The translations under genes were made by a program, and so were the position numbers. Shown piece by piece: positions 16,107 through 64,000 of a stretch of DNA of 64,000 bases. The notes below the pieces were generated by a model. The model searched no databases, was not told where the DNA came from, and saw only the letters and a list, made by a program, of their open reading frames with translations. Each line of letters starts with the position of its first letter. Position 1 is the first letter of the stretch. The DNA is from Candidatus Forterrea multitransposorum CG_2015-17_Forterrea_25_41 (GTDB lineage: Archaea; Iainarchaeota; Iainarchaeia; Iainarchaeales; CSSED10-239): positions 288,001 to 352,000 of the forward strand of contig CP045477.1 of assembly GCA_009392915.1 (NCBI GenBank), written 5' to 3'.

Positions 16107-16346
16107 ATGGCTGTAAAAAAGAAAGTAGTTGCAAAAAAAGCACCTGCTAAAAAAGCTGTTGTTAAGAAAAAAGCACCTGTTAAAAAAGTAGTTGCTAAAA
16201 AAGCACCAGCTAAAAAAGTAGTTGCAAAAAAAGCACCTGCTAAAAAAGCTGTTGTTAAAAAAGCACCTGCTAAAAAAGTAGTTGCTAAAAAAGCACCAGC
16301 TAAAAAAGTAGTTAAAAAGAAAGCACCTGCTAAAAAGAAAAAATAG
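16107..16346 (+). CDS. lysine/alanine-rich histone H1-like (Hc1/AlgP-like) tandem-repeat DNA-binding protein
   Basis: 79 aa made almost entirely of (V)VAKKAPAKK(A) repeats. A strong GGAGGGAG Shine-Dalgarno lies 6-8 nt upstream. The repeat is encoded by 30-nt tandem DNA repeats. Confidence 0.6.
   Translation: MAVKKKVVAKKAPAKKAVVKKKAPVKKVVAKKAPAKKVVAKKAPAKKAVVKKAPAKKVVAKKAPAKKVVKKKAPAKKKK
16125..16337. repeat. seven tandem copies of a 30-nt unit (GTAGTTGCAAAAAAAGCACCTGCTAAAAAA and variants) inside the H1-like gene
   Basis: Directly visible in the sequence. The units differ by synonymous and near-synonymous substitutions. Confidence 0.8.
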
Positions 16347-26809: not shown

Positions 26810-27019
26810 TTGAAAACAATAATTAAAGCACTAAGACAAAAATATAATTTAACACAAGAAGACCTTGCTTTAAAGGTAGGGGTTAGAAGAGAAACAATTG
26901 TCTTTATTGAGAAAGGATCTTACAATCCTTCTTTAAAACTTGCAAAAAAGATCTCCTTAGTTTTAAAAGAAAAAATAGATAATATCTTTATATTTAGTAA
27001 AGGAGATTTAGATTTTTAA
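26810..27019 (+). CDS. XRE-family (Cro/C1-type) helix-turn-helix transcriptional regulator
   Basis: [29 protein letters not shown] is a textbook HTH_3. TTG start with AAGGTGA 6 nt upstream. Confidence 0.7.
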
Positions 27020-28033
27020 TATCTTTCTAAAACTTTCTATTTTTTTATCAATATATCCTTTATCATAAAGATATTTATAATTTTTTAAAATATCTTTAAT
27101 TATTTTCTTTCTATCATATAAATTATATTTAGTTTCTTCAAAGATTAAATGTAAATAATATTCAGAACTTGTAACAAGCCAAAAATATACTTGTAAATCT
27201 TTAAAAAAGAAATATTTTTTAGAAACATTTTTTATTTTTTTAAAATTTTTTATATATTCTTTAAGAAATAATTTTTCAAATGTTTTAAATTTATTAGAGT
27301 GAGATAATTTTGCAATATCAAGTATAGGATTACCTACTTTCAAATATTCCCAATCAATAAAATTTATTTTTTTATTATTTTCAATAATATTTTTTGAATT
27401 TAAATCTCCATGTGTTAAATAATTATCTTTATTTATATCATTTGGTTTATTTACTTCAATATTTTTTCTTATTCTTTTATACATTTTTGAAACATCTAAA
27501 CATCTATGACTAATATACGTCTCTTTAATTTTAAATTCTGATATAAGTTTATTATAATTTTGTTTATCAATATTTATTTTTTCTAAAAATGATAATTTTG
27601 TATTATTTGATTTTGCTAATTTTTTAGCAATAATTGAAATATTTTTTTTATTTAAAACTATATTTTTTCCTTTAACGTATGTAATTATTATATATGAATA
27701 AGAACAAAATCTACCTTTTTTTGAAAAATAGATTTTTTTTGTATCTGATAAATTATATTTTTCAACAATTTTTAGTTTATTATACTCTTTTTTTGATTTT
27801 TTATAAGAATCATTATTTAATCCTTTGATATTTATTCTAAAAATATATTCTTTTTTATTTATTTTAAAATAAATGTTTATATTTTTTCTATTAATTTTAA
27901 GAAATTTAATATTTTTCACTTGTATTTTTTCATTAATACCAAATATATCTGAAGATAAATTTTCAATTTCTTTTTTAACATCGACAAGCTTTATTTCCAT
28001 AATTATTTTATAATTAATTAAGTTTTTAAACAT
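27008..28033 (-). CDS. aminoglycoside-phosphotransferase/choline-kinase-like (protein-kinase-fold) phosphotransferase
   Basis: Catalytic-loop [10 protein letters not shown] and DFG-equivalent IDWEY, spaced as in the APH family. Confidence 0.55.
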
Positions 28034-28123
28034 AATTATTTAATATTTATATTAAATAATTTATTTAAAATAAGAAAAGAGTTTATATAAGTATCTATCT
28101 TATATATTAATTATTAAAATACA

Positions 28124-29521
28124 ATGAAGGTCTTTTTAATGAATGAAATTGAATTTGATTATGAAAATAAAGAATTTAATGAAATAATTTATAAAATAAT
28201 GTTACATACTATAGAAATATCTGATTTTGATAATTATTTTACTAAAGGTCTTACAAATGAAGATAAAGAAAAAGTATTGACTGAAATAAAAAATTTAGAT
28301 TTTAGTATTATAGCAATTAATGAAGTTATTGTAGAAACTAAAAACTTTTTTAAAAAATATTTAGAATCAGATTTTACAGAATATTTAATTGATTATTTGA
28401 TAGGTTATAAAGAATTAGCACCGATCATGAAAAGTGATGATTATGAAGAAATAATGGTTAATGATTATAATAAAGTATTTGTAATTTCAAGAAAAAATAT
28501 ATATTATAAAACAAATATCGTTTTTGATAGAAGAAGTTTTAATGTTTTTTTAGAATATATTAAAAAAACAATTAATGGTGACTTTAATAAAAGAAAATTT
28601 ATTGATGGTGTACTACCTGATAACTCAAGAATAAATATTGTTTCTAAAGAGATTGCAAGATTTAATGTTATAACTATTAGAAAATTTTTAAGTAAACCAT
28701 TAACAATAGTTGATTTAATTAATAATAATACTTTTAATTATGAAGTTGCAGCTTATTTATGGACTGTAATTGAAGGATTTAATTTAAAACCAGCAAATCT
28801 TTTTATTTGTGGTGGAACAAGTACAGGTAAGACAACTCTTTTAAATATTTTACTTAACTTTGTACATCCAAAAGAAAGAGTTATTTGTGTTGAAGATACT
28901 AAAGAAATAAATACAACTATCTTTGATAATTCTGTAAGTCTTATTAGTGATATTTCTGATCCAGATAGTCTTTATAATATTACTTTAAACATATTAAGAA
29001 TGAGACCAGATAGAATAGTTATTGGTGAAACTAGAGGTAAAGAAGCTAAAGCTTTATTTATGGCAATGGATACAGGGCACCAAGGTTGTATATCTACAAT
29101 TCATGCAAATAATAGTGGAGATTTAATTAATAAATTATTATCTGAACCAATGAATATAGAAGAAAGTTACATTAAATTATTAGACATAATAATTACTTTT
29201 GATAAAAAATATATTGGTAATAAAATGTATAGATATGTTTCTCAAATTTCAGAAATTAGTAGACTTGGAAATATTACATTAAATCACATTTATTCCAATG
29301 ATAATATGGAATTTAGTTCTTCAGTTAATTTTATGAGTTCTCAATTTTTAGAAAAATTATGTAATTATATAAGTATTTCAAAAATAGAACTTCAAATTGT
29401 AATTGATAATAGAATTAAAATACTTAAAAGTATGGTTGATAGAAATATTAAAGATTCTGAAGAAATTAGAAATTTACTTATTGATCCAAGATTTGGTTAT
29501 AAAGAATTATTAAATAAATAA
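28124..29521 (+). CDS. secretion-superfamily ATPase (FlaI/TadA/VirB11-like) with long N-terminal domain
   Basis: Walker A GGTSTGKTT, Asp box VEDTKE, Walker B RMRPDRIVIGETRG and His box HQGCISTIHANN. Confidence 0.8.
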   Translation: MKVFLMNEIEFDYENKEFNEIIYKIMLHTIEISDFDNYFTKGLTNEDKEKVLTEIKNLDFSIIAINEVIVETKNFFKKYLESDFTEYLIDYLIGYKELAPIMKSDDYEEIMVNDYNKVFVISRKNIYYKTNIVFDRRSFNVFLEYIKKTINGDFNKRKFIDGVLPDNSRINIVSKEIARFNVITIRKFLSKPLTIVDLINNNTFNYEVAAYLWTVIEGFNLKPANLFICGGTSTGKTTLLNILLNFVHPKERVICVEDTKEINTTIFDNSVSLISDISDPDSLYNITLNILRMRPDRIVIGETRGKEAKALFMAMDTGHQGCISTIHANNSGDLINKLLSEPMNIEESYIKLLDIIITFDKKYIGNKMYRYVSQISEISRLGNITLNHIYSNDNMEFSSSVNFMSSQFLEKLCNYISISKIELQIVIDNRIKILKSMVDRNIKDSEEIRNLLIDPRFGYKELLNK

Positions 29522-29559
29522 AAAAGAAAGGTTTATAAATAAATTGAATAACAATATAA

Positions 29560-29850
29560 ATGATTATTATGGATATTACAATGATTTATGCTTTATTTAT
29601 AATAGCTTATGCAGTTTTAATATTTTTAGGTTCTACATATCTTGAAGAATCTAATTTATTAAGAAATAAAGGTAAAAGAAAGAAAGTTGATCAAGCAAAG
29701 AAATGGTTTAGTTTTTTTATATTTAGTTTCTTATATGCTGTATTAATATATGCAAGTTTTTATGTGCATTATTTAATAGTAATTTCTCTTCTTTTATATG
29801 CTACCTTATTATTTTTCATAGCGTATTCTATTAGAAGACACTTAAAATAA
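29560..29850 (+). CDS. small membrane protein
   Basis: 96 aa with two or three TM helices, directly downstream of the ATPase. Confidence 0.4.
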   Translation: MIIMDITMIYALFIIAYAVLIFLGSTYLEESNLLRNKGKRKKVDQAKKWFSFFIFSFLYAVLIYASFYVHYLIVISLLLYATLLFFIAYSIRRHLK

Positions 29851-29870
29851 ATGTTTTATTTTTAGGACAT

Positions 29871-30455
29871 TTATTTTATAATTTTTCTTTTTTTTGTATA
29901 ACTATATTTATTATTTTTTTTAATTATTTCAAATAAGTATATAAAATTATTATTAAAACTAGAAATATCTTTATTATATTCTTTATTAGTAATGTATGAT
30001 ATTATTGCTCTTCCTATACCATTGTGACAAGTAATTAATATTGTTTTTTCTTTATAATTTTTATATAAATAGTCTATAAAATTTTTAGCTCTTTTTAAAA
30101 ATTTTTTATTTTTTTCTCCTTCTTTATTTTCATATATAACAAAATAATAACTTTTTAGTGACCAATTAAATTCTTTTTTAGTTTTTCCTGTAAGTTCTCC
30201 TAAATCTTTTTCTCTTAATTTTTCTGTGTAAATTAAAGGTTTAGATTTATGATATTTGTATATTTCTTTAATAGTGTCTTTGGCTCTTTTAAGATCACTT
30301 GAAAAGAAAAAGTCTATTTTTTCATTTTTTAAAGTAATTGCTATTTTTTTTGCTTGTTCTATACCTTTTTTTGTAAGTTTACCTGGTAGATGTCCTTGCA
30401 TTATACCTTTTGTGTTTTCTATTGTTTCTCCATGTCTTGTTATTATTAGTTTCAT
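29871..30455 (-). CDS. histidine phosphatase family protein (phosphoglycerate-mutase-like)
   Basis: N-terminal LIITRHGET catalytic RHG motif and downstream ITCHNGIGRAIISY. Confidence 0.7.
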   Translation of the reverse strand: MKLIITRHGETIENTKGIMQGHLPGKLTKKGIEQAKKIAITLKNEKIDFFFSSDLKRAKDTIKEIYKYHKSKPLIYTEKLREKDLGELTGKTKKEFNWSLKSYYFVIYENKEGEKNKKFLKRAKNFIDYLYKNYKEKTILITCHNGIGRAIISYITNKEYNKDISSFNNNFIYLFEIIKKNNKYSYTKKRKIIK

Positions 30456-30564
30456 ATATTTTTCACATTTTTAAATATTTATAATGTAGACTATATTAAA
30501 AATAGTCTTTTTAATTAGTATAATTTTTTTGTAGTAATTTCTTTTTCTTAAGTATACTATAATT

Positions 30565-31479
30565 TTATTTTATATTTTTAAAATAGATATACTCATTTTC
30601 TATATTTAGATCAAATACTTTTATGAAAAAATTTTTTGCATTAAATTCATTTTTATCATCAAAATTATCTTTATTACCTATAGTATTAAACATTTTTTGA
30701 AAAGCTTCTTTATATGAAATATTTTCTTTTTCAGAAATTTTTTTTAATAAATAATCCATAAATTTACCTGCTGATTGATAATATCTATTTTTAGTTATAT
30801 TACGCTTGTCATAGTCAAAAACATTAATTCTTTCTAAAAATAATTCTTTTGCTGTAATTAATTCTTCATTGAAATCTTTTGAGATTTGATTTGCACATAT
30901 TACTGTTAATCCTTCATTAAATAATAATGGTAATGAATTTAATTTCCCATTTTTTTTTAAATTATATTTGTGAAAAAATATGTGTAACAATTCATGAGCA
31001 TCTCCTAGTATTGATTCTTTAGAATGTACATTTCTTTTTGCATTATCTAAAAGAAATGTTTGAAGATAAATTAAAGTTGTACTAGATACTCTTCCTTTTG
31101 CATTTGATGGTAAATTCATTTTTGTAGTGCGTCCAATTGAACAAAATTCATCAAAGTCTTTAGCCAAAAATATATTAATTGAATAGCATTCTGAATAGAA
31201 TATTTTTTCTGGAGAATAAAAAAATGAAATTAGATGGTCTTTTGCTTTTAAAAATCTTTCTTTAACATATATAAATACATTAGCCTTTTTATAAGTTCCT
31301 TTTAAAATCTCATCTAAATTTTTTTGGAATTCATTAATTAAAGAAGTATAATAAAAATTAAAAGGAATTTCTCCATCTATATTTACTTTGAAAATAGATT
31401 TTTCTTTTGAAATTACAAAATTTTTACATAAATTTTCTTTTTCTTTATCTTTAACTTCATAAAATTTTATTTTAAGCAT
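30565..31479 (-). CDS. hypothetical protein with HExxH motif (putative zinc metallopeptidase)
   Basis: LGDAHELLHIFFHKY lies mid-protein. There is no signal peptide and no other recognisable family signature. Confidence 0.4.
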   Translation of the reverse strand: MLKIKFYEVKDKEKENLCKNFVISKEKSIFKVNIDGEIPFNFYYTSLINEFQKNLDEILKGTYKKANVFIYVKERFLKAKDHLISFFYSPEKIFYSECYSINIFLAKDFDEFCSIGRTTKMNLPSNAKGRVSSTTLIYLQTFLLDNAKRNVHSKESILGDAHELLHIFFHKYNLKKNGKLNSLPLLFNEGLTVICANQISKDFNEELITAKELFLERINVFDYDKRNITKNRYYQSAGKFMDYLLKKISEKENISYKEAFQKMFNTIGNKDNFDDKNEFNAKNFFIKVFDLNIENEYIYFKNIK

Positions 31480-32458
31480 GGTATTCTATTTTAGTATTTT
31501 TTAATTATTTTTAATTATAAATATAATCACATATAATATATTTAAAGCTTTTGATTTAATTTTTATTGATATATTTTTCTCGGCCAGGTAGCCTCTCCTT
31601 GAAAACAGATATATTTTTGTCTTTACACTATATTATTATAATTTATAAAAGGAGGTAATAGATGGTTGTGATAAAATGAACTTTAAACTACATAATATTT
31701 TAGATTATTTGTTTCGGCAAATTTAATATAGATAAAAAGTAAGTAAGTTATGTATAGTTTATAAGATATTAAAAATTAAAAAATTGTTATGTCTTTGGGA
31801 AGTAAATTATTTTATAAAAAATTATTTTTGTGAGAGATGATGATAAGAAATACTTTTTTACAATTATTATTTTTTATAATCTAATTTACTATACATAACA
31901 ATATAATTTTAAAAAATATTTTTTTCTAGAAAGTGTCAAAAAATTAAATTTTCAGCTTCATTCTTCGGTCGGCATAATATCTCTTATGCCGAAAAATAGC
32001 CTAAAAAAGAGGTGTTTTTTGTGCTTTTTTTAACCTTTTTAAGGGATTTGATTTAAGGGAAAAATGTGCTAAAAAATATGTTCTAAATAGGGTAGGGTAT
32101 TTGACCACTAAATGCCCTGTTTTTAAGGGGTTTTGATGGAGTTTCTTAAGATCTTTAAAAAAAGTAGATTTTTTAGTGTTTTTTTACAAAATTTATTTAA
32201 TAAAAATATATTTTTTGAAAAATCTGTTTAAATTGTAAAAATTATAAGATTATAAAAAAATTTAATTATGAAATATTTGTATTAAAATTTGATGGAAATT
32301 AATTGTCCAATATTTAATGAATTTATAAAAATAATAGTTTTTTTATAGATTAAAAAAATTATTTAATATTATTAAAAATAAAAATAATGTGATTTTAGAA
32401 GTAACTCTATATATACATAACGATGTAATAGTATTTCATATAATCATCCTCTTTAAAA
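31480..32458. other. ~980-bp gene-free segment with inverted repeats, direct repeats, a GC-richer core and a stable hairpin (candidate ncRNA / miniature element / att remnant)
   Basis: There is no ORF of 60 aa or more on either strand. A 12-bp inverted repeat GTTATGTATAGT/ACTATACATAAC sits at 31747-31758 and 31888-31899. An imperfect ~17-nt direct repeat ATACATAAC(A/G)AT.TAAT sits at 31891-31907 and 32413-32429. A 9-bp-stem hairpin is at 31969-31992. TTAAGGG(A/G)TTTGAT repeats are at 32039 and 32123. Confidence 0.5.
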
Positions 32459-32875
32459 TTATTTAAAAGGATTAATTACCTTTATTTCTTTGATTTTTTT
32501 AAAAGTTTTGTAATCTTCAGTATATATTGTTTTAATGTTGTTTTCTATCATAGTTTGAGCTAGTAATGCATCAAAAAAAGGTATTTTCTTATTATAACTT
32601 ATATTAATTGCATCTAATATACTGTTTTTATTATATTCTACAATATTAAATAATGTTTTTATTTCAGTTATATAAGTTTCTAGCTCTTTTTTTGATATTT
32701 TTAATTTGTTTATAGAAATATTTGTAAATTCCATTATTGTCTGTATACTTATGTAGCATTCTTTTGTATTAGCAAATTTATCTATTATGTCTATTGCTTT
32801 TTCTTTATTTTTACTATTTACTAAAAAATACGCATTTAACAAGATATTAGTATCTAATAATATTTTTTCAGTCAT
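32459..32875 (-). CDS. vapC: PIN-domain ribonuclease toxin (VapC)
   Basis: N-terminal ILLDTNIL and C-terminal FFDALLAQTMIENNIKTIYTEDYKTF are acidic PIN residues. 138 aa. Confidence 0.75.
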   Translation of the reverse strand: MTEKILLDTNILLNAYFLVNSKNKEKAIDIIDKFANTKECYISIQTIMEFTNISINKLKISKKELETYITEIKTLFNIVEYNKNSILDAINISYNKKIPFFDALLAQTMIENNIKTIYTEDYKTFKKIKEIKVINPFK

Positions 32876-32886
32876 ATTATTCCTCT

Positions 32887-33120
32887 CTATTTATAATAAT
32901 TATCTCTATTTTTTATTTGATTTTTATTTATTTTTTTAGTGTTTTTTTTCAATTTATTAATTAGATTTTTCTTAAGATCGTCTCTACTATTTTCTAGATT
33001 ATTTAGTGCTTTAATAATTGTTTTACTTATAGCATCTTTTCTATTTCCATAGTGTATTTTTGCAGAATCTCTAAGTAATTTTTCAGAATCGTTGTCTAAA
33101 GATATTGTAATTACACCCAT
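32887..33120 (-). CDS. vapB: VapB-like antitoxin (ribbon-helix-helix / CopG-like)
   Basis: MGVITISLDNDSEKLLRDSAK is N-terminal RHH-like. It lies immediately upstream of vapC with an 11-nt gap. The start was moved to the ATG with an AAGGTGG Shine-Dalgarno. Confidence 0.5.
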   Translation of the reverse strand: MGVITISLDNDSEKLLRDSAKIHYGNRKDAISKTIIKALNNLENSRDDLKKNLINKLKKNTKKINKNQIKNRDNYYK

Positions 33121-33446
33121 AATTTCCACCTTATTTTTATTATACCGAAAGTGATTTTTAACAATTATATTTACTATGAAAAGGTTTTTAAATCTATTTA
33201 TTATTTAGTTTAATATTTAAATATATTATTATTTAAATAAACAATTATTTAATAATTTTATAAAATATTTTTGTCCAACAAAAATAGTTTTTTTTATTAA
33301 AATGTTTTTTTATAATTTGATATTTTTTTCTTAATTTATTTGATATTTTTTTTACAAAATATTAATCTTTTTTTATTTAGTGGTTTACTTTTTTAAATGA
33401 CACTACTTATAGAAACTTTTTTAAACTTATAATACTAAAAATATTT

Positions 33447-34250
33447 ATGTCATTAAACTTAGAATTATTTTTAAATGATCTTCCTACAAATATCTCTGAA
33501 AAGCAAGGTATTTATGAATATTTTAAACTATATGCTGTAGAACCTTTTAATAAATTTAATAAAGAACAAACAAAATTTATTTTAGATAAATATAAAGATC
33601 CTTTAAAACTTGAAAAAGCTTTAAAAATAATGATAAATCTACCTAAATCTCTTTCTTTTAAAAATTTAATTAAATCTACTGATTATAATTTAAATTTTAG
33701 AGAAAAATTTAAAGAATTAAATCTAAGAAAAGATTTTAAAATTAAAGTTTCAAGTTATAATTCTCCTCATAATTTTTTTAATGGTACTCAATACGACATG
33801 TATTTTAAAAATGAAGTTATAGGTAATTTTAATTTTATTTTTACTTATGAAAAAAATAATTTAACTTTAAGATTAAAATATATGCAAGGTGTAAAAGGAA
33901 AAGGTAGCCAATTAAGTTCTCTTTCATCAAGATTAAATCAAGACTGGATGTCAAGATTATTAATTTTTTTAAAAAAATATTCTGAAGCTAAAAAAATTAA
34001 TTATGTTTTTGAAATACCTCCTAAATATACTACAGCTAATGAAAAGGTTTATAGAAAATATGCTTTTGAAAATTATTTAAAAAGATATTTAGATAATAAT
34101 ATACCAATATCTAAAATTGATTTTAAAAATGTACCTAAAGAATATCTTCCTGAAATTAAAGAAATAATTAATTCTAGAAAACCAAAAAAAACTATACCAA
34201 GACTTTTACTTAAAACTAAAAGAAATTTGCGTAAATTTCAAAAAAAGTAA
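33447..34250 (+). CDS. hypothetical protein
   Basis: 267 aa with a basic C-terminus. No assignable motif. Confidence 0.45.
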   Translation: MSLNLELFLNDLPTNISEKQGIYEYFKLYAVEPFNKFNKEQTKFILDKYKDPLKLEKALKIMINLPKSLSFKNLIKSTDYNLNFREKFKELNLRKDFKIKVSSYNSPHNFFNGTQYDMYFKNEVIGNFNFIFTYEKNNLTLRLKYMQGVKGKGSQLSSLSSRLNQDWMSRLLIFLKKYSEAKKINYVFEIPPKYTTANEKVYRKYAFENYLKRYLDNNIPISKIDFKNVPKEYLPEIKEIINSRKPKKTIPRLLLKTKRNLRKFQKK

Positions 34251-34309
34251 GCTTTTTAAACATTTTTTAACTATATATAGTTATAGTAAATAATAGGTTT
34301 AGATAAAAA

Positions 34310-34732
34310 ATGAAGCAAGAAGTTAGAATTCTTTTAGGATTATTAATATTTTATTTAATGTATGTTCTACTTGTAGACTTTACAAAGCTTTCAAGTATAC
34401 CTTTAGTAATAGTTGCAGGTATTTTTTTAATTTTTTTATTCTTACCAGATATTTCAAATGAAAATAATATGATAAATAAAAATCAAAAGAATATTTCTAT
34501 TTTATTATTTATAGCAGCTATTTTAGTTTTTATTACAACAAAGCTTCTTTTAATACCTTTAATAATTATAGGAAGTATATTTATTTTAGTATTTTTAACA
34601 ACAAGTCCTGGAATTTATAAGTCTTTAACAACTGGACTTTATTTGTCAGCTCCATTATTTTTATTAAGCCCTTTTTATTTTCTATTTGCTTTCTTAGGCT
34701 TTCTAACATTCTGGATATCTTCAAGAATTTAA
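34310..34732 (+). CDS. membrane protein (4 TM)
   Basis: 140 aa of highly hydrophobic helices. Confidence 0.45.
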   Translation: MKQEVRILLGLLIFYLMYVLLVDFTKLSSIPLVIVAGIFLIFLFLPDISNENNMINKNQKNISILLFIAAILVFITTKLLLIPLIIIGSIFILVFLTTSPGIYKSLTTGLYLSAPLFLLSPFYFLFAFLGFLTFWISSRI

Positions 34733-34743
34733 AATAGATTAAA

Positions 34744-35232
34744 ATGATAAATTATAAAAGATTTATTGATTCAGAAATTAATAATATATCTGAAAACGAT
34801 TTCAAAAATATTTTTAAAATAAGTGATAGACAATTTAGTAAGGACTATTTCTTAGATAAATTTAATAAAAAGAAAAGTTTTTTTAAACCAATTTCAAACT
34901 ATTTGTATCTAGCATATAATGATAAAGAATTAGTAGGATATTTATTTGGAGAAAAAAGAAAGTCAAATTTTAAAATTAAGTGGATGGGAGTTAGTGAAAA
35001 ATATCTTAATCAAAAAATAGGTTTAAAAATAAAAATAAGAGTGCTTTCTGATTTAAGAGTTAGTGGAATTAAACAAGTAATTTCTCAAGCACATACAGAG
35101 CAAATAAAAAATTTAAATGACAAAATAATTAAAAGGAAAGGTAAAACTCATTATCAATTAACTGAAGAAAAATCAAAAAATAGTGCTTTTAAATATAGAT
35201 TTTTTAGTAAATTTAAAATTAAAAGAAAATAA
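34744..35232 (+). CDS. possible GNAT-like acetyltransferase (weak)
   Basis: LVGYLFGEKR...IKWMGVSEKYLNQKIGLKI resembles a GNAT motif A region. The rest is too divergent to be sure. Confidence 0.3.
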   Translation: MINYKRFIDSEINNISENDFKNIFKISDRQFSKDYFLDKFNKKKSFFKPISNYLYLAYNDKELVGYLFGEKRKSNFKIKWMGVSEKYLNQKIGLKIKIRVLSDLRVSGIKQVISQAHTEQIKNLNDKIIKRKGKTHYQLTEEKSKNSAFKYRFFSKFKIKRK

Positions 35233-59618: not shown

Positions 59619-59631
59619 AAAAAGAGAAACT

Positions 59632-62600
59632 ATGAAAACAAAAAGACTTTGGGCAATATTTTTTTTAATATTAATGATAAATGGAGTTTTTGCATCTACA
59701 ATAGATCCAAACAGAGTATTTTCAACTGAAGATACATCTTATTATTTTGATGATGCTATTCCAATTAATTATACAGATGAACCTATAAACTATACTCAAG
59801 ATAAAGTTATTTCAGAATGTTACACAGAAGAGCTTTCTCCTGAAGCTGTAGAAAATATTTGGAATGAGATTTTAGTTAATGGTTTTAAAGCTGATTTAAT
59901 AACAAGTGATCAACCTGCAAACTTAAATAGAGAAACATTAAAAGCAAATGAAGTTATAATTACAGACAAAGATACAAAATCAGGAGATGTTGTAGGAAAA
60001 ACAGAAATTCCTGATAAAATAATGGATCCTTTAGAAGTTCCAACTATTTTAGGTCAAGTATGTTATGGTCCTTTTTCAAGTGGACTTGATCTTGATAGTA
60101 CCCTAAGAGTTGGAAGATGTGCTGGTGGAGACCAAGCAGCTTGTTATCTTGAAGGAGAAGGATTATTTAGACAAAATGGAAGTTATGGTTTTATTGATCA
60201 AACTTTTTCTGTAAGTAAAGATTTTTTAGATATGTTAGGTCTTAAAAAATTAGAAGAAGTTTCAAATGAATTAATTGACCCAGAGTTAGATTATGATACA
60301 AATGTTGATTTAGGTTTATTTTCTGATATGTCTTATGAAGAACTTGCAGAGTTTAGAAAAAGTCAATTTCAAGATAGTAATTTAACTGAAATAGATATTA
60401 AAAAAATGGAATTAGTTTTAGATAAAGCTATTGAAAACAGTATGTTTACTGATTCTTTTAATGCAAGTATGGAAAGCACTTGTAATTCTGATAATTGTTA
60501 TATTAACATGTATTCTCTTTTTGACAAAGTTTTTAATCAATATTATTCTGCTGATATGGTATTTACTTCAGCATCTCCTGTTCTTTGGAAATTTACTGGA
60601 AAAATATTTAGAAATGTACCAAATAAACTTGGAGCTCAAAAATTAATTGCATCTGATAAGATTGGTGGAATAAGAGGTAAAAATGGTTTTTTAGATAATT
60701 TTTTAAATAAAGATATGAGTGCAGTAAGTTCTGCAGTACAAACCTATAAATATTCAAAGATTACAAAAAACATTGATGATTATGCTGCTAAACTTGCAAA
60801 AAGTAATGACAATATAATCAAGAATATTAATAGATATAACATGAAACCAGAGTTTGATAAATATGTAAATGCTTTAAACTCTAAAAAGAATGCAGACACA
60901 ATTAAAAATGAATTCTTTAAAGATGGAGCTTTTGCAAAAATGAATAAACCTCAACAAAGAGTGTTCATGGAATCTGTTCTTGAATATCAAAACAATATTA
61001 GAACAGTTAGAATGGTACAAGATTTTACAACTGATAATTTAAAAAATACTTTAAAAGAACCTCTTGAAAATTTATTTAATAAATCTAAAACAATGGAAGA
61101 CTTTTATCAATCTTTAACAAAAGAAGAATATGATCTTTTACTTGAAGAAACAAAAAGATTAAATGGTCTTAATAAATCATTTTCAACATTTACTGAAAAT
61201 AAATTTAAATGGGATGATGGTGCTGATAATATCACTCTTTTAAAAGAAAGAGGAAAAATAATTAATGATGAAGAAGTTTTATTAAATAAAGTAAGACTTA
61301 AAAATGAAGTAACTTCAACAGAACTTACAGGATCTTCTAAATTTGGAGATATTATTTCTGAAAATAAAGTTTCTCCTTTCCAAACTAAAAAAATAACTGT
61401 TAATTTTAAAGATGGTCCAAGTGAGGTTGAAGTAATTATTCCTTTTAAAGAAAAAATAAGTGATACTTCAACTATGCTTAATTATAATGATATAATATAT
61501 AACAAAAAACCAGATGTATTAATAGAATATGTTGCAAAAGATGGAACTGCAAAAAAAGTGAGAGGCTCTGTAATTGATATTGGAGATGTTGATCCTGGTA
61601 AACAAATAAATATGAGAGATATTAAAGATACTGCAGTTCCTGATGCAGAACTTTCAAAATATGGAATTAATCCTTTAGAAGTATCTTATGGTTATTTACA
61701 AGAACTTGGAATTAAAAAAATAAAAGATGCAGAAATAGTAACTGATGGTGTCGTAAGTGTTTTAAAAGACCAAGGATGGAGTACAGGAAGAGGATTAAGT
61801 TATATAAATCAAAGAATGAAACAACAAACTGTAACTCAATGGGATAAAAGAGGATTTAATATAATGTCAGATTCTGCAAAAGCTTATCTTTATAATTTTG
61901 GATATTGGCAATTTAAAACAGCTGGTTCAACTATATTTGGTGGAGCTTTTGATAGATATAGTATGTTTAGAATACCAGAAACATATACTTCTATTATTTT
62001 TAAACATGGTGAAAGTGGAGATATATACAATGATTCTTATATAGATTTCTTTGCAAATGATGGTTCTGATCAAGGAGATCTTTTTATGGATTATTTTAAT
62101 TCAATTATATTTTGGATGGTAAATCTTCCTAAAGGTGCTTTAGAAAACACAGAGTGGGAAACAACACAAGGTTTTTCAAACTGGATAACAGAACTAACTG
62201 AAGGACATATAAGAAGAAGTTCTACAGATAATATTGCAATATTAACTGATGCAATGAACAATAATTGTTCAACAACTTCTTGTCATATAAAAGTTGGAGA
62301 CTCTTCTCTTCTTGAAGAAGTTACAAGAAGTAAATCTATGGATGCAAATAATTCAACATCTACAAGTCTTAAGAAAAATATTGAAGTTAATTATGCAACT
62401 GGAAATGCAATAAAAACAACAAGTTATATTTTAGAAAACACAAGTGAAGAAAACTTTGAAGAAGAAGGACAAACATTAATTGCATTTTCTCATCATACAG
62501 ATTATGATGGTTCTCTTGCAGGTTTTAACTCTACAGATTCAGTAAATCTTTTACAATCAATTAACGAAGAAGAAACTTGTTCTGATAAACTTAAAAATTT

Positions 62601-64000
62601 AGAAGTCATGGGAATACCAATAGGTTGGACAAACCAAATAACAGGAAAATCATATAGAGCAGGTGCTGTTGCAGCTGGTTTTTCAAATATTGTTTATTAT
62701 TCTTTAAGTGTTCCTCAACACAGAGTAGTTTTAGGAGCAATTTTTGGTGATATTTTACCACAAGTTGTAATTGTTCCAGAAATTTATAATTGTGTAGATC
62801 ATGAAGAAGGTTATTATTCACATTTCTTTGTTGCCTCTGAAGAATATGAAAGAATTGAAAAAGATCCAAAAAATAAAGTTGGAGATGCAATTTCAAAAGG
62901 AGCAGATTCTGTTGAAAAGAGTTTAACAAATATTACAAAGAACACAGAACTTCAAGAATCAATTTCAAAAACAACACAAGAAGTAAAACAATTTGCTGAA
63001 ACTGAAATTAAAGATAATCCAATTATGCAATCAAGAATAGAAACACAAGGTAATACTTCTGGATCAATGAATGCTAAACTTTTCTTCCTTGAAATTGGAG
63101 AAAGTTCAATGTGTAGAGCAAGTGGTTATAATGATAAAGGTGTTGAACATTTAGTTGATTCTAAAACAGGAGAAACTTTAGTTGTTGATAAAGAAGAAGG
63201 TGTTGTTGAAATTGTTGATAAAGATGGAAATGTTAAAGAAATAATTTCTTCAAAAAATAAAGATTGGGTAAGACTAATGGCAACTAACTTAGGAATTCCT
63301 GCAAAAGTAATTCCTCATAGTCTTTCATATATCCCTGTACCTGACACAAATACTCCTTTGTTTAATATTGATGTTTATGGTAATCTAAAGATAGATGATG
63401 CTGAATTTTTAAGTTGTTTAAAAAGAAATTACTATGAACAAACTGGTCTTGAAATGAGTGGTAATACTTTAACAGAATATTTAGGTTCTGTAAAACAAGT
63501 AATCACAACAAATAATTTAAACCCAGATAGTCAATATGACATAATACCAAAAGGAATGAATAGTTCAGCAGAAATAATAGCAGAAGGAACTCCAAGAAAA
63601 ATAGCTTCTGGTGAATCTGCAAGAATAAATGTTCTAGGAAACAGAACTACAAAATTATATCCTATTGAAGGAAAAGAAGTCACTCTTGGTAAAAATATTT
63701 CTGTTCAATTTGAAAGAGGACAATTAATCTATAATGGAGAAAAGAATAGTTATATTATGTGGGTTGAACAAACCTATGTAATGCATCAATCTGAAATAAA
63801 AGGAATGGATGTTGATCCTATAAAAGAAACTAATCCTGAAACTGGTTGTGAAGAAGATGCCTTTGAAATTAGTGTTTCACCAGATACTTCTAACCCTGAA
63901 GCTGTTAAAAAGTCAGAAAATATGAATAAAGCTTTAGAAAAAGTTGGACCATTTAAGATGTTTGATACACCTACAAAAACATTTATTTTCTATACAACAG
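59632..64000 (+). CDS. giant secreted/cell-surface protein, at least 1456 aa (3' end beyond window)
   Basis: ATG at 59632 after AAAGAGAAAC. Signal peptide MKTKRLWAIFFLILMINGVFAS. Frame 1 is open without a stop to the window edge by manual translation. The protein is Cys-containing and Asn/Thr-rich. It is absent from the ORF track only because it lacks a stop in the window. Confidence 0.7.
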   Translation, partial: MKTKRLWAIFFLILMINGVFASTIDPNRVFSTEDTSYYFDDAIPINYTDEPINYTQDKVISECYTEELSPEAVENIWNEILVNGFKADLITSDQPANLNRETLKANEVIITDKDTKSGDVVGKTEIPDKIMDPLEVPTILGQVCYGPFSSGLDLDSTLRVGRCAGGDQAACYLEGEGLFRQNGSYGFIDQTFSVSKDFLDMLGLKKLEEVSNELIDPELDYDTNVDLGLFSDMSYEELAEFRKSQFQDSNLTEIDIKKMELVLDKAIENSMFTDSFNASMESTCNSDNCYINMYSLFDKVFNQYYSADMVFTSASPVLWKFTGKIFRNVPNKLGAQKLIASDKIGGIRGKNGFLDNFLNKDMSAVSSAVQTYKYSKITKNIDDYAAKLAKSNDNIIKNINRYNMKPEFDKYVNALNSKKNADTIKNEFFKDGAFAKMNKPQQRVFMESVLEYQNNIRTVRMVQDFTTDNLKNTLKEPLENLFNKSKTMEDFYQSLTKEEYDLLLEETKRLNGLNKSFSTFTENKFKWDDGADNITLLKERGKIINDEEVLLNKVRLKNEVTSTELTGSSKFGDIISENKVSPFQTKKITVNFKDGPSEVEVIIPFKEKISDTSTMLNYNDIIYNKKPDVLIEYVAKDGTAKKVRGSVIDIGDVDPGKQINMRDIKDTAVPDAELSKYGINPLEVSYGYLQELGIKKIKDAEIVTDGVVSVLKDQGWSTGRGLSYINQRMKQQTVTQWDKRGFNIMSDSAKAYLYNFGYWQFKTAGSTIFGGAFDRYSMFRIPETYTSIIFKHGESGDIYNDSYIDFFANDGSDQGDLFMDYFNSIIFWMVNLPKGALENTEWETTQGFSNWITELTEGHIRRSSTDNIAILTDAMNNNCSTTSCHIKVGDSSLLEEVTRSKSMDANNSTSTSLKKNIEVNYATGNAIKTTSYILENTSEENFEEEGQTLIAFSHHTDYDGSLAGFNSTDSVNLLQSINEEETCSDKLKNLEVMGIPIGWTNQITGKSYRAGAVAAGFSNIVYYSLSVPQHRVVLGAIFGDILPQVVIVPEIYNCVDHEEGYYSHFFVASEEYERIEKDPKNKVGDAISKGADSVEKSLTNITKNTELQESISKTTQEVKQFAETEIKDNPIMQSRIETQGNTSGSMNAKLFFLEIGESSMCRASGYNDKGVEHLVDSKTGETLVVDKEEGVVEIVDKDGNVKEIISSKNKDWVRLMATNLGIPAKVIPHSLSYIPVPDTNTPLFNIDVYGNLKIDDAEFLSCLKRNYYEQTGLEMSGNTLTEYLGSVKQVITTNNLNPDSQYDIIPKGMNSSAEIIAEGTPRKIASGESARINVLGNRTTKLYPIEGKEVTLGKNISVQFERGQLIYNGEKNSYIMWVEQTYVMHQSEIKGMDVDPIKETNPETGCEEDAFEISVSPDTSNPEAVKKSENMNKALEKVGPFKMFDTPTKTFIFYTT

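Follow-up and report, generated by a model that had tools for sequence, protein, structure and literature searches.

A candidate dif locus with extended conserved flanks in a gene-free island of the archaeon Candidatus Forterrea multitransposorum

A 64-kb stretch of the Candidatus Forterrea multitransposorum genome (contig CP045477.1, positions 288,001 to 352,000; hereafter the window) contains a gene-free island at positions 31480-32458, located between a gene encoding an HExxH protein and vapC. We propose, with a probability of roughly 0.55, that this island is the dif locus of the chromosome, i.e. the core site of an Xer-type recombinase, accompanied by extended accessory DNA. Four kinds of observations bear on this proposal: the architecture of a 28-bp element in the island and its uniqueness in the window, its conservation in related archaea, the nearly fixed spacing of the motifs that surround it, and the association of the same palindrome with tyrosine recombinase genes in unrelated contigs. 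We infer from sequence that the XerA recombinase of the host would act at this core to resolve chromosome dimers, and that the flanks would serve as accessory sites.

A 28-bp core with the architecture of a dif site

The candidate core (GGTCGGCATAA|TATCTC|TTATGCCGAAA, positions 31967-31994) consists of two 11-bp inverted arms, symmetric at 9 of 11 positions, on either side of a 6-bp spacer, and its centre reads TAA-N6-TTA. It includes a hairpin with a 9-bp stem at 31969-31992 (TCGGCATAA-TATCTC-TTATGCCGA), which the preliminary description of this DNA had already recognized. The core is found only once in the window, where 0.01 copies are expected by chance, and once in each of the loci fetched from relatives. 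A Cortez-style filter applied to all intergenic DNA of the window (5,965 bp) returned 188 inverted-repeat candidates, 31 of which have a 6-bp spacer; a single one of these, the core itself, shows TAA-N6-TTA.

Published definitions of dif sites include arms of about 11 bp with a 6-bp spacer (PMC2958812, PMC5357621), an inner TAA-N(6-8)-TTA motif (PMC11840125), and more than four complementary pairs between positions 7-12 and 17-22 (PMC3025954). The candidate has imperfect inverted arms of about 11 bp, a 6-bp spacer, the inner motif, and five complementary pairs out of six between these positions, as counted from the sequence. In addition, it is non-coding and lies above the 80% conservation expected of a dif site among related genomes, with 85-100% identity.

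In the mechanism that we propose, the 28-bp element would be the core site for an Xer-type (XerA-like) tyrosine recombinase. As established for Xer systems, each 11-bp arm would be bound by a single monomer of the recombinase, the DNA would be cleaved at the borders of the 6-bp spacer, and strand exchange between the two site copies of a chromosome dimer would yield two monomers before division. The conserved DNA from -395 to +150 around the core would be accessory or architectural, with five TATACATAAC-type motifs, a box X, a box IV, and a GGGTAGGG box located at nearly fixed distances. These flanks may bind further recombinase subunits or partner proteins, which would give the synapse a fixed geometry or mark the locus. 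The TATACATAAC-type motif and the core arms share CATAA/TTATG.

Conservation of the core and of a surrounding 558-bp block

We compared seven orthologous sequences, including the window, which represent five lineages. A degenerate hairpin pattern searched against species-representative genomes identified L017, whose flanking genes show 92-94% nucleotide identity to those of the window. VapC homologues led to L019 (VapC 88% identical), L020 (64%), and L022 and L023 (62%), and a second metagenome scan added L026, which is L019-like, and L024, a more distant 1.1-kb contig. The relatives are labelled Pacearchaeota, Nanoarchaeia or 'ainarchaeum', and the organism itself is therefore, like them, a DPANN archaeon. 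An initial metagenome scan, with a 27-mer from the start of the HExxH gene, had given zero hits, as the source contigs are absent from that collection. Two scans of viral contigs with core patterns yielded zero matches, and a sensitive blastn search of the island against the loci of HExxH homologues and the rest of the window returned low-complexity matches only.

The arms of the core are invariant in all five lineages, although VapC proteins are only 62-64% identical among the distant ones; all the variation of the core resides in two spacer bases (TATCTC versus TATACC). The core is the best conserved part of a non-coding block of 558 bp (31573-32130), which occupies the same place downstream of vapBC in the five lineages, no empty site being seen. 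Conservation inside the block is patchy and concentrates in box X, a GGAGGT box, box IV, a G-box, and the hairpin. Identity of the block to the window is 91% in L017/L019, 67% in L020, 55% in L022, and 53% in L024. Corresponding values for vapC third codon positions are 79%, 55%, and 59% in L017/L019, L020, and L022, respectively (not available for L024), and those for the spacer at 32131-32458 are about 50%, 73%, 48%, and 48% in L017/L019, L020, L022, and L024. In L017, L019, and L020, identity is thus higher in the block than at vapC third codon positions, whereas in L022 this is true of the core only and not of the whole block. The block is under purifying selection, and the nearby spacer is unalignable in the closest relatives. 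The unalignable part is an AT-rich spacer (32131-32411, 9-15% GC) that separates the block from the last motif copy and vapC, and that cannot be aligned to L017 and L019. The preliminary description had left room for a decayed pseudogene region; we conclude that the island is genuine and does not consist of decayed DNA. The lack of ORFs (open reading frames) of 60 aa or more, also reported there, holds: the largest ORF between 31480 and 32458 is 35 aa.

A repeated motif and boxes at nearly fixed distances

The features listed in the preliminary description were all located where it had placed them or at most 1 nt away. They comprise a 12-bp inverted repeat (GTTATGTATAGT at 31747-31758 and ACTATACATAAC at 31888-31899), which we could extend to 36 nt at 81% complementarity, a direct repeat (31890-31907 and 32412-32429) with 16 of 18 positions identical, and TTAAGGG(A/G)TTT repeats (32036-32049 and 32120-32133), whose conservation is limited to close relatives and lost in more distant ones. 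The longest perfect inverted and direct repeats of the island are 13 and 12 bases long, respectively, which is within one base of the modal length of 12 in 500 dinucleotide shuffles. As shuffles give the same lengths, repeat lengths alone are no evidence. What does exceed chance is the palindrome of the core, the clustering of the 10-mer TATACATAAC, and the conservation of both elements in relatives.

The inverted and direct repeats turn out to be copies of one motif, roughly TKGTTATGTATAG, which is present five times and in both orientations. Its 10-mer TATACATAAC occurs three times in the 64 kb when both strands are considered, always within the island. All copies are given here as read on the plus strand, with distances relative to the core. 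Copy R1 (ACTATACATAACAA, 31888-31901) belongs to both repeats, as right arm of the inverted one and left copy of the direct one, and is present in all lineages. The distance from its start to the TCGGCATAA of the core is exactly 77 nt in seven of the seven sequences, while the DNA in between shows only 41-56% identity in distant lineages. Copy F1 (GTTATGTATAG, 31747-31757), the left arm of the inverted repeat, lies at -217 to -228 in all lineages, and copy R2 (CTACATAAT, 31688-31696) at -270 to -286, again in all lineages. Copy F2 (TTGTTATGTC, 31784-31793) is located at -178 to -182 in four lineages and is absent in L024. Finally, copy R3 (TATACATAAC, 32412-32421), the right copy of the direct repeat, is located in the variable AT-rich spacer. 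It is found at +418 to +445 in L017, L020, L022, and L024, despite surroundings that are unalignable in L017, and was not found in L019/L026.

Two observations concern R3 and R1. L019 (5434-5910) and L026 (1407-1883), i.e. the same two relatives without a detected R3, carry an extra 158-aa ORF directly after vapC and before the conserved block. Secondly, a 297-kb metagenome contig (L005; JGI 3300025129, Ga0210027_1000012) ends inside R1, at a position equivalent to 31897 of the window. This end could reflect a population that is heterogeneous rightward of R1, such as through loss of the 522 bp between R1 and R3, or could be an assembler artefact.

Three boxes complete the block. Box X (TTTTTCTCGGCCAGGTAGCCTCTCCTTGAAAACAGATATA, 31573-31612) forms its left edge and is 100% identical in L017/L019, 77% in L020, and 65% in L024. 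Box IV (GTGAGAGATGATGA, with the motif GTGAGAGATGA; 31830-31843) lies at -135 to -137 in four lineages. The G-box (AAATAGGGTAGGGTATTTGACC, 32085-32106) includes 17 bp that are invariant in four lineages and is positioned at +118 or +119 from the core in six of the seven sequences. Within it, GGGTAGGG (32090-32097) is the sole match in the window to GGGNAGGG, the E. coli FtsK-orienting (KOPS) consensus; this match is presumably a coincidence.

The same palindrome next to tyrosine recombinase genes

Outside the orthologous loci, TCGGCATAA-N6-TTATGCCGA was detected 17 times, in IMG/VR contigs and in bacterial genomes of high GC content. Of these 17 occurrences, at least 9 are located 30-150 bp from genes with a Pfam Phage_integrase domain, often together with SAM-like domains, and several of these genes are in tandem. 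The recombinase-associated loci (L013, L014, L015, L018, L027, L029, L031, L035, and L036) are on unrelated contigs. The adjoining recombinase genes encode proteins of 403-444 aa, with further recombinase genes, of about 310-330 aa, coming next where this was checked. As the palindrome is found beside tyrosine recombinase genes in unrelated contigs, it is a real recombinase core-site type, and the archaeal core sequence is linked in this way to the terminal sites of bacterial elements with tandem recombinases.

These bacterial loci look like recombinase-in-trio (RIT) type elements. According to a statement in PMC8138268 that cites Ricker et al. 2013, RIT enzymes are 'simple' tyrosine recombinases related to Xer. 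Terminal sites of the RIT type share with the archaeal core the 9+9-bp palindrome and the 6-bp spacer, but the palindromes of the bacterial and IMG/VR loci are flanked by two further direct TCGGCATAA half-sites and have tandem recombinase genes at a distance of 100-150 bp. Neither the extra half-sites nor the recombinase genes are present in the archaeal loci, where the site occupies one chromosomal position.

Comparison with known Xer systems

Archaeal dif sites are 28 bp long, non-coding and single-copy, have conserved flanks and flanking inverted repeats, and usually lie apart from xerA (PMC2958812; PMC5357621), as is the case in Thermococcales (PMC2958812). The T. kodakarensis site (TTTTGATATAATGTACCTTATATGACAA), validated by chromatin immunoprecipitation, is located in an unusually large intergenic region of about 1.9 kb, and the sequence that surrounds it is itself functional (PMC11840125). 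With the XerA/dif systems of T. kodakarensis (PMC11840125) and of Thermococcales and Sulfolobales (Cortez et al. 2010, PMC2958812), the candidate shares the 28-bp layout and TAA-N6-TTA, as well as a large intergenic setting, conserved flanks with inverted repeats, and the lack of an adjoining recombinase gene. It differs from them by its flanks, which extend over about 530 bp with five motifs at fixed distances versus about 23 bp in Thermococcales, and by the lack of a skew inversion.

The bacterial XerCD/dif system (E. coli GGTGCGCATAATGTATATTATGTTAAAT; PMC3025954) has the same layout. The left arm of the candidate, GGTCGGCATAA, agrees with GGTGCGCATAA in 9 of its 11 bases, the inner CATAA...TTATG of E. 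coli dif is identical to that of the candidate, and the flanking motif TTATGTATAGT is similar to XerD-side arms, for example that of B. subtilis dif (TTATGTAAACT). Unlike in the bacterial system, the candidate arms are nearly symmetric and the host is an archaeon; archaea have a single XerA, which is independent of FtsK (PMC5357621).

The plasmid sites cer and psi (PMC5357621) provide a third parallel, as they join an Xer core to conserved, non-coding accessory sequences that extend over a few hundred bp. They are, however, bacterial and plasmid-borne, and their accessory DNA is one-sided and binds ArgR, PepA or ArcA. By analogy, accessory DNA of this type could confer intramolecular (dimer-to-monomer) selectivity in the absence of FtsK. 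This leads to a more specific version of the dif proposal, which we regard as possible but doubtful: a compound archaeal resolution site, in which accessory DNA of about 530 bp, with repeated half-site-like motifs at fixed distances, would surround an Xer core. Such a site would assemble a defined nucleoprotein synapse, acting as a topological filter as in cer/psi, or as a boundary element similar to the surroundings of T. kodakarensis dif. If so, it would supply dimer-to-monomer directionality to an archaeon devoid of FtsK.

Weighing the dif proposal

Several observations weigh against a dif site. Firstly, neither tblastn nor Pfam searches revealed a tyrosine recombinase gene in the window or in the fetched archaeal loci, although adjacency of xerA is not required for archaeal dif (PMC2958812). 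Secondly, the single copy of the core is shown for the 64-kb window, which represents only about 9% of the genome. Thirdly, the core is identical to E. coli dif at 19 of 28 positions and to T. kodakarensis dif at 15 of 28, the latter value not being significant alone, and random AT-rich 28-mers of the window equal these scores; similarly, a crude weight matrix built from four sites places the core second in the window, not first. As neither identity nor weight-matrix scans are discriminating in AT-rich DNA, the argument for dif is one of architecture and context and not of sequence similarity.

Compositional skews provide a further point. The strand-corrected GC skew at third codon positions (GC3 skew) does not switch sign at the locus (left side, +0.136 +/- 0.043; right side, +0.038 +/- 0.039), nor does the equivalent AT3 skew within +/-32 kb, and k-mer skews, which are confounded by gene orientation, show no clean inversion. 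The skews point to neither a termination zone nor an origin at the locus. As archaeal dif sites are often not located 180 degrees from the origin (PMC5357621), the missing inversion counts only weakly. Finally, the conserved flank of 558 bp is far longer than the flanks of about 23 bp in Thermococcales, the bacterial sites with an identical palindrome belong to mobile elements and are not chromosomal dif sites, and a hairpin without variation would fit a protein-bound RNA as well.

If the proposal is true, the candidate would be the first dif system in DPANN archaea; our literature search returned no paper mentioning both XerA and DPANN. How archaea without FtsK restrict Xer recombination to dimer resolution is an open question, and the locus offers a concrete test object, with a 28-bp core with invariant arms, boxes at fixed distances, and alignments from five lineages. 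Repeats flanking archaeal dif have been suggested to bind a partner protein (PMC2958812), and the DNA around T. kodakarensis dif has a function of its own (PMC11840125). The dif class being already known, it is the extended flanks with fixed geometry that could be new. Should the dif proposal be wrong, a 558-bp non-coding element under clear purifying selection would still remain to be explained in very small genomes.

Alternative explanations

Three explanations had been offered for the island in the preliminary description: a non-coding RNA gene, a miniature mobile element with a target-site duplication, and an attachment (att) scar linked to the neighbouring genes. The last one came nearest, as the hairpin does have the architecture of a tyrosine recombinase core site, but the site is conserved and apparently functional and is not a scar. 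Its proposed tie to the HExxH gene did not survive either: this gene is missing from the closer relatives L017, L019, L026, and L020, and as it was inserted later, the core site is not tied to it.

An RNA explanation, which we consider unlikely, supposes that the block is transcribed, either into one or several small RNAs or as a long leader of the downstream His_Phos (histidine phosphatase) gene, with the hairpin as a protein-binding RNA stem-loop. It would account for the conservation of the block above neutral sites and for a conserved GGAGGT box. It would also fit the end of the conservation at a T-run (32120-32124) in all lineages, and the ancestral gene order, which places the block upstream of His_Phos on the same strand. 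In addition, the 231-nt core region folds somewhat better than shuffled sequences, with z scores of -2.05 (plus strand) and -3.5 (minus strand). Yet Infernal/Rfam scans found nothing in the window at gathering thresholds; at E<=10 the island gave two sub-threshold matches at chance level, and four relatives gave none at E<=1. RNAalifold, run on both strands with six sequences for the block as a whole and with five lineages for the core and its surroundings, returned weak energies and covariation terms of -1.9 to +2.0 kcal/mol, i.e. near zero or unfavourable, with a power limited by the small number of lineages. The sole solid helix, the palindrome, is invariant and hence yields no evidence from covariation, and stems other than the palindrome are disrupted in L022 and L024. 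Moreover, five motif copies in both orientations suit protein sites on DNA better than a single RNA fold, T-runs of 5-7 occur within the block on both strands, and the core lies about 470 bp from the His_Phos start, beyond the usual archaeal leader. The RNA gene initially suggested is thus left with no Rfam family and no covariation support. Locally elevated GC, which had been taken as a mark of structured RNA, is real relative to the surroundings (0.29-0.33 at 31950-32150 versus 0.09-0.20) but is not above that of coding DNA in the window (0.25-0.32). Two specific RNA classes were considered and rejected: a C/D-box small RNA reading of GAGATGATGA lacks a D box and its box is not conserved, and RNase P or signal recognition particle (SRP) RNA gave no match and no conserved motifs.

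Quite improbable, in our judgement, is another kind of protein-DNA element, such as a replication origin, in which the inverted TATACATAAC motifs would be origin-recognition boxes on either side of an AT-rich stretch for unwinding, a partition site, or a cluster of transcription-factor operators. The five conserved motif copies in both orientations and the uniqueness of their cluster in 64 kb would suit any of these, and F1 and R1, inverted around 129 bp of DNA with about 85% AT, would suit an origin in particular. Conservation islands in variable AT-rich DNA also resemble archaeal origins. However, the window ORFs of at least 300 aa include no Orc1/Cdc6-type match, there is no skew inversion at the locus, and the motif is unlike canonical origin-recognition boxes. 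More generally, elements of this kind leave unexplained the best conserved feature of the block, a textbook palindrome of the recombinase type.

We give little credence to an origin of the palindrome in a mobile element, either as an att site of elements that exploit Xer or as a leftover terminal site of the RIT type. The identical palindrome at the ends of bacterial elements with tandem tyrosine recombinase genes speaks for it. So do the differences in gene content among relatives to the left and right of the block (the HExxH insertion, the 158-aa ORF, and the replaced spacer), the location of the locus next to toxin-antitoxin genes and within 8 kb of low GC, and the metagenome contig that ends inside R1. 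On the other hand, no recombinase gene is present nearby, and the archaeal site lacks the direct TCGGCATAA half-sites that are typical of the bacterial elements. Furthermore, the site and its flanks are found at the same position and under purifying selection in five lineages, in contrast to the decay of non-coding DNA next to them; a relic would have shared this decay, which disfavours this explanation. The miniature mobile element is refuted, with no second copy and no empty site: the search for further copies of the 520-bp unit in the window and in the scanned public collections recovered orthologous loci only. Nor does the unit of about 520 bp have the features of a miniature inverted-repeat transposable element: its ends are direct and not inverted repeats, no other copy turned up in the window or the scanned collections, and the position is the same wherever it is readable. 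The supposed target-site duplication is rejected because the ends are copies of a motif conserved in the readable corresponding stretches of relatives.

Lastly, a very small plus-strand protein (MPKNSLKKRCFLCFF), starting at an ATG in the right arm (31986), is hardly credible: one frame is open across the core in all five lineages, its N-terminus MPK(N/K)xLKK is conserved and it shows a few synonymous differences (CTA/CTT, AAG/AAA), but the predicted products differ in length (15, 18, 22, and 39 aa), neither a ribosome-binding nor a promoter signal is conserved, T-runs trivially account for the hydrophobic tail, and conservation extends far past the frame on both sides. Another mini-ORF, following the GGAGGT box (31663), was discarded because its start codon is not conserved.

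Genomic setting and minor observations

GC content ranges from 18 to 30% across the window and is about 18% around the island. The window encodes EF-2 and has split RNA polymerase subunit genes. The proteins of both genes flanking the island are identical on JAACSK010000001.1 (GCA_009993905.1, 687,636 bp) and on a 663,621-bp JGI contig. All the genes that flank the island are on the minus strand, in the order vapB-like (32887-33129), vapC, which encodes a PIN domain (32459-32875), island, HExxH (30565-31479; no Pfam match), and His_Phos (29871-30455). VapBC adjoins the conserved block in every lineage with a readable neighbouring gene; no functional link between vapBC and the block was found.

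The HExxH gene and its flanks (30484-31572, minus strand) are a lineage-specific insertion between the block and His_Phos, outside the conserved element. Where the gene is absent (L017, L019, L026, and L020), about 100 nt of AT-rich DNA connect box X to the His_Phos start, and in the window the left border of box X directly adjoins the insertion. The HExxH gene is a later, recent insertion in the lineage of the window, directly bordering the conserved block. The gene has 13 homologues with 48-63% identity, which have short upstream regions and are not syntenic. As regards other signals, a tRNA scan and a terminator scan found none, promoter-like sites were at shuffle level, and tandem repeats in the island were AT-rich noise only.

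The locus lies within an 8-kb stretch (27000-35000) with a GC content of 0.15-0.20 versus 0.22-0.32 around it, which encodes an APH-like kinase, a type II/IV secretion ATPase, His_Phos, HExxH, vapBC, and several ORFs without family match. Gene content is variable over this whole stretch. For example, a 162-aa ORF at 34744-35232 is missing from L017 and L019, and the interval from a 267-aa gene to vapB, 318 bp long in the window (33130-33446), contains an ORF of about 298 aa in L019 and about 900 bp of extra DNA in L017.

Two further genes of the window, both on the plus strand, deserve mention. The first one (16107-16346) encodes a lysine/alanine-rich protein of 79 aa (MAVKKKVVAKKAPAKK...) made of seven 30-bp tandem repeats, by appearance a histone-H1-like basic repeat protein. 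The second one (about 59630-64000) is an ORF of at least 1,464 aa which has a signal-peptide-like start, runs past the end of the window, and probably encodes a giant surface protein.

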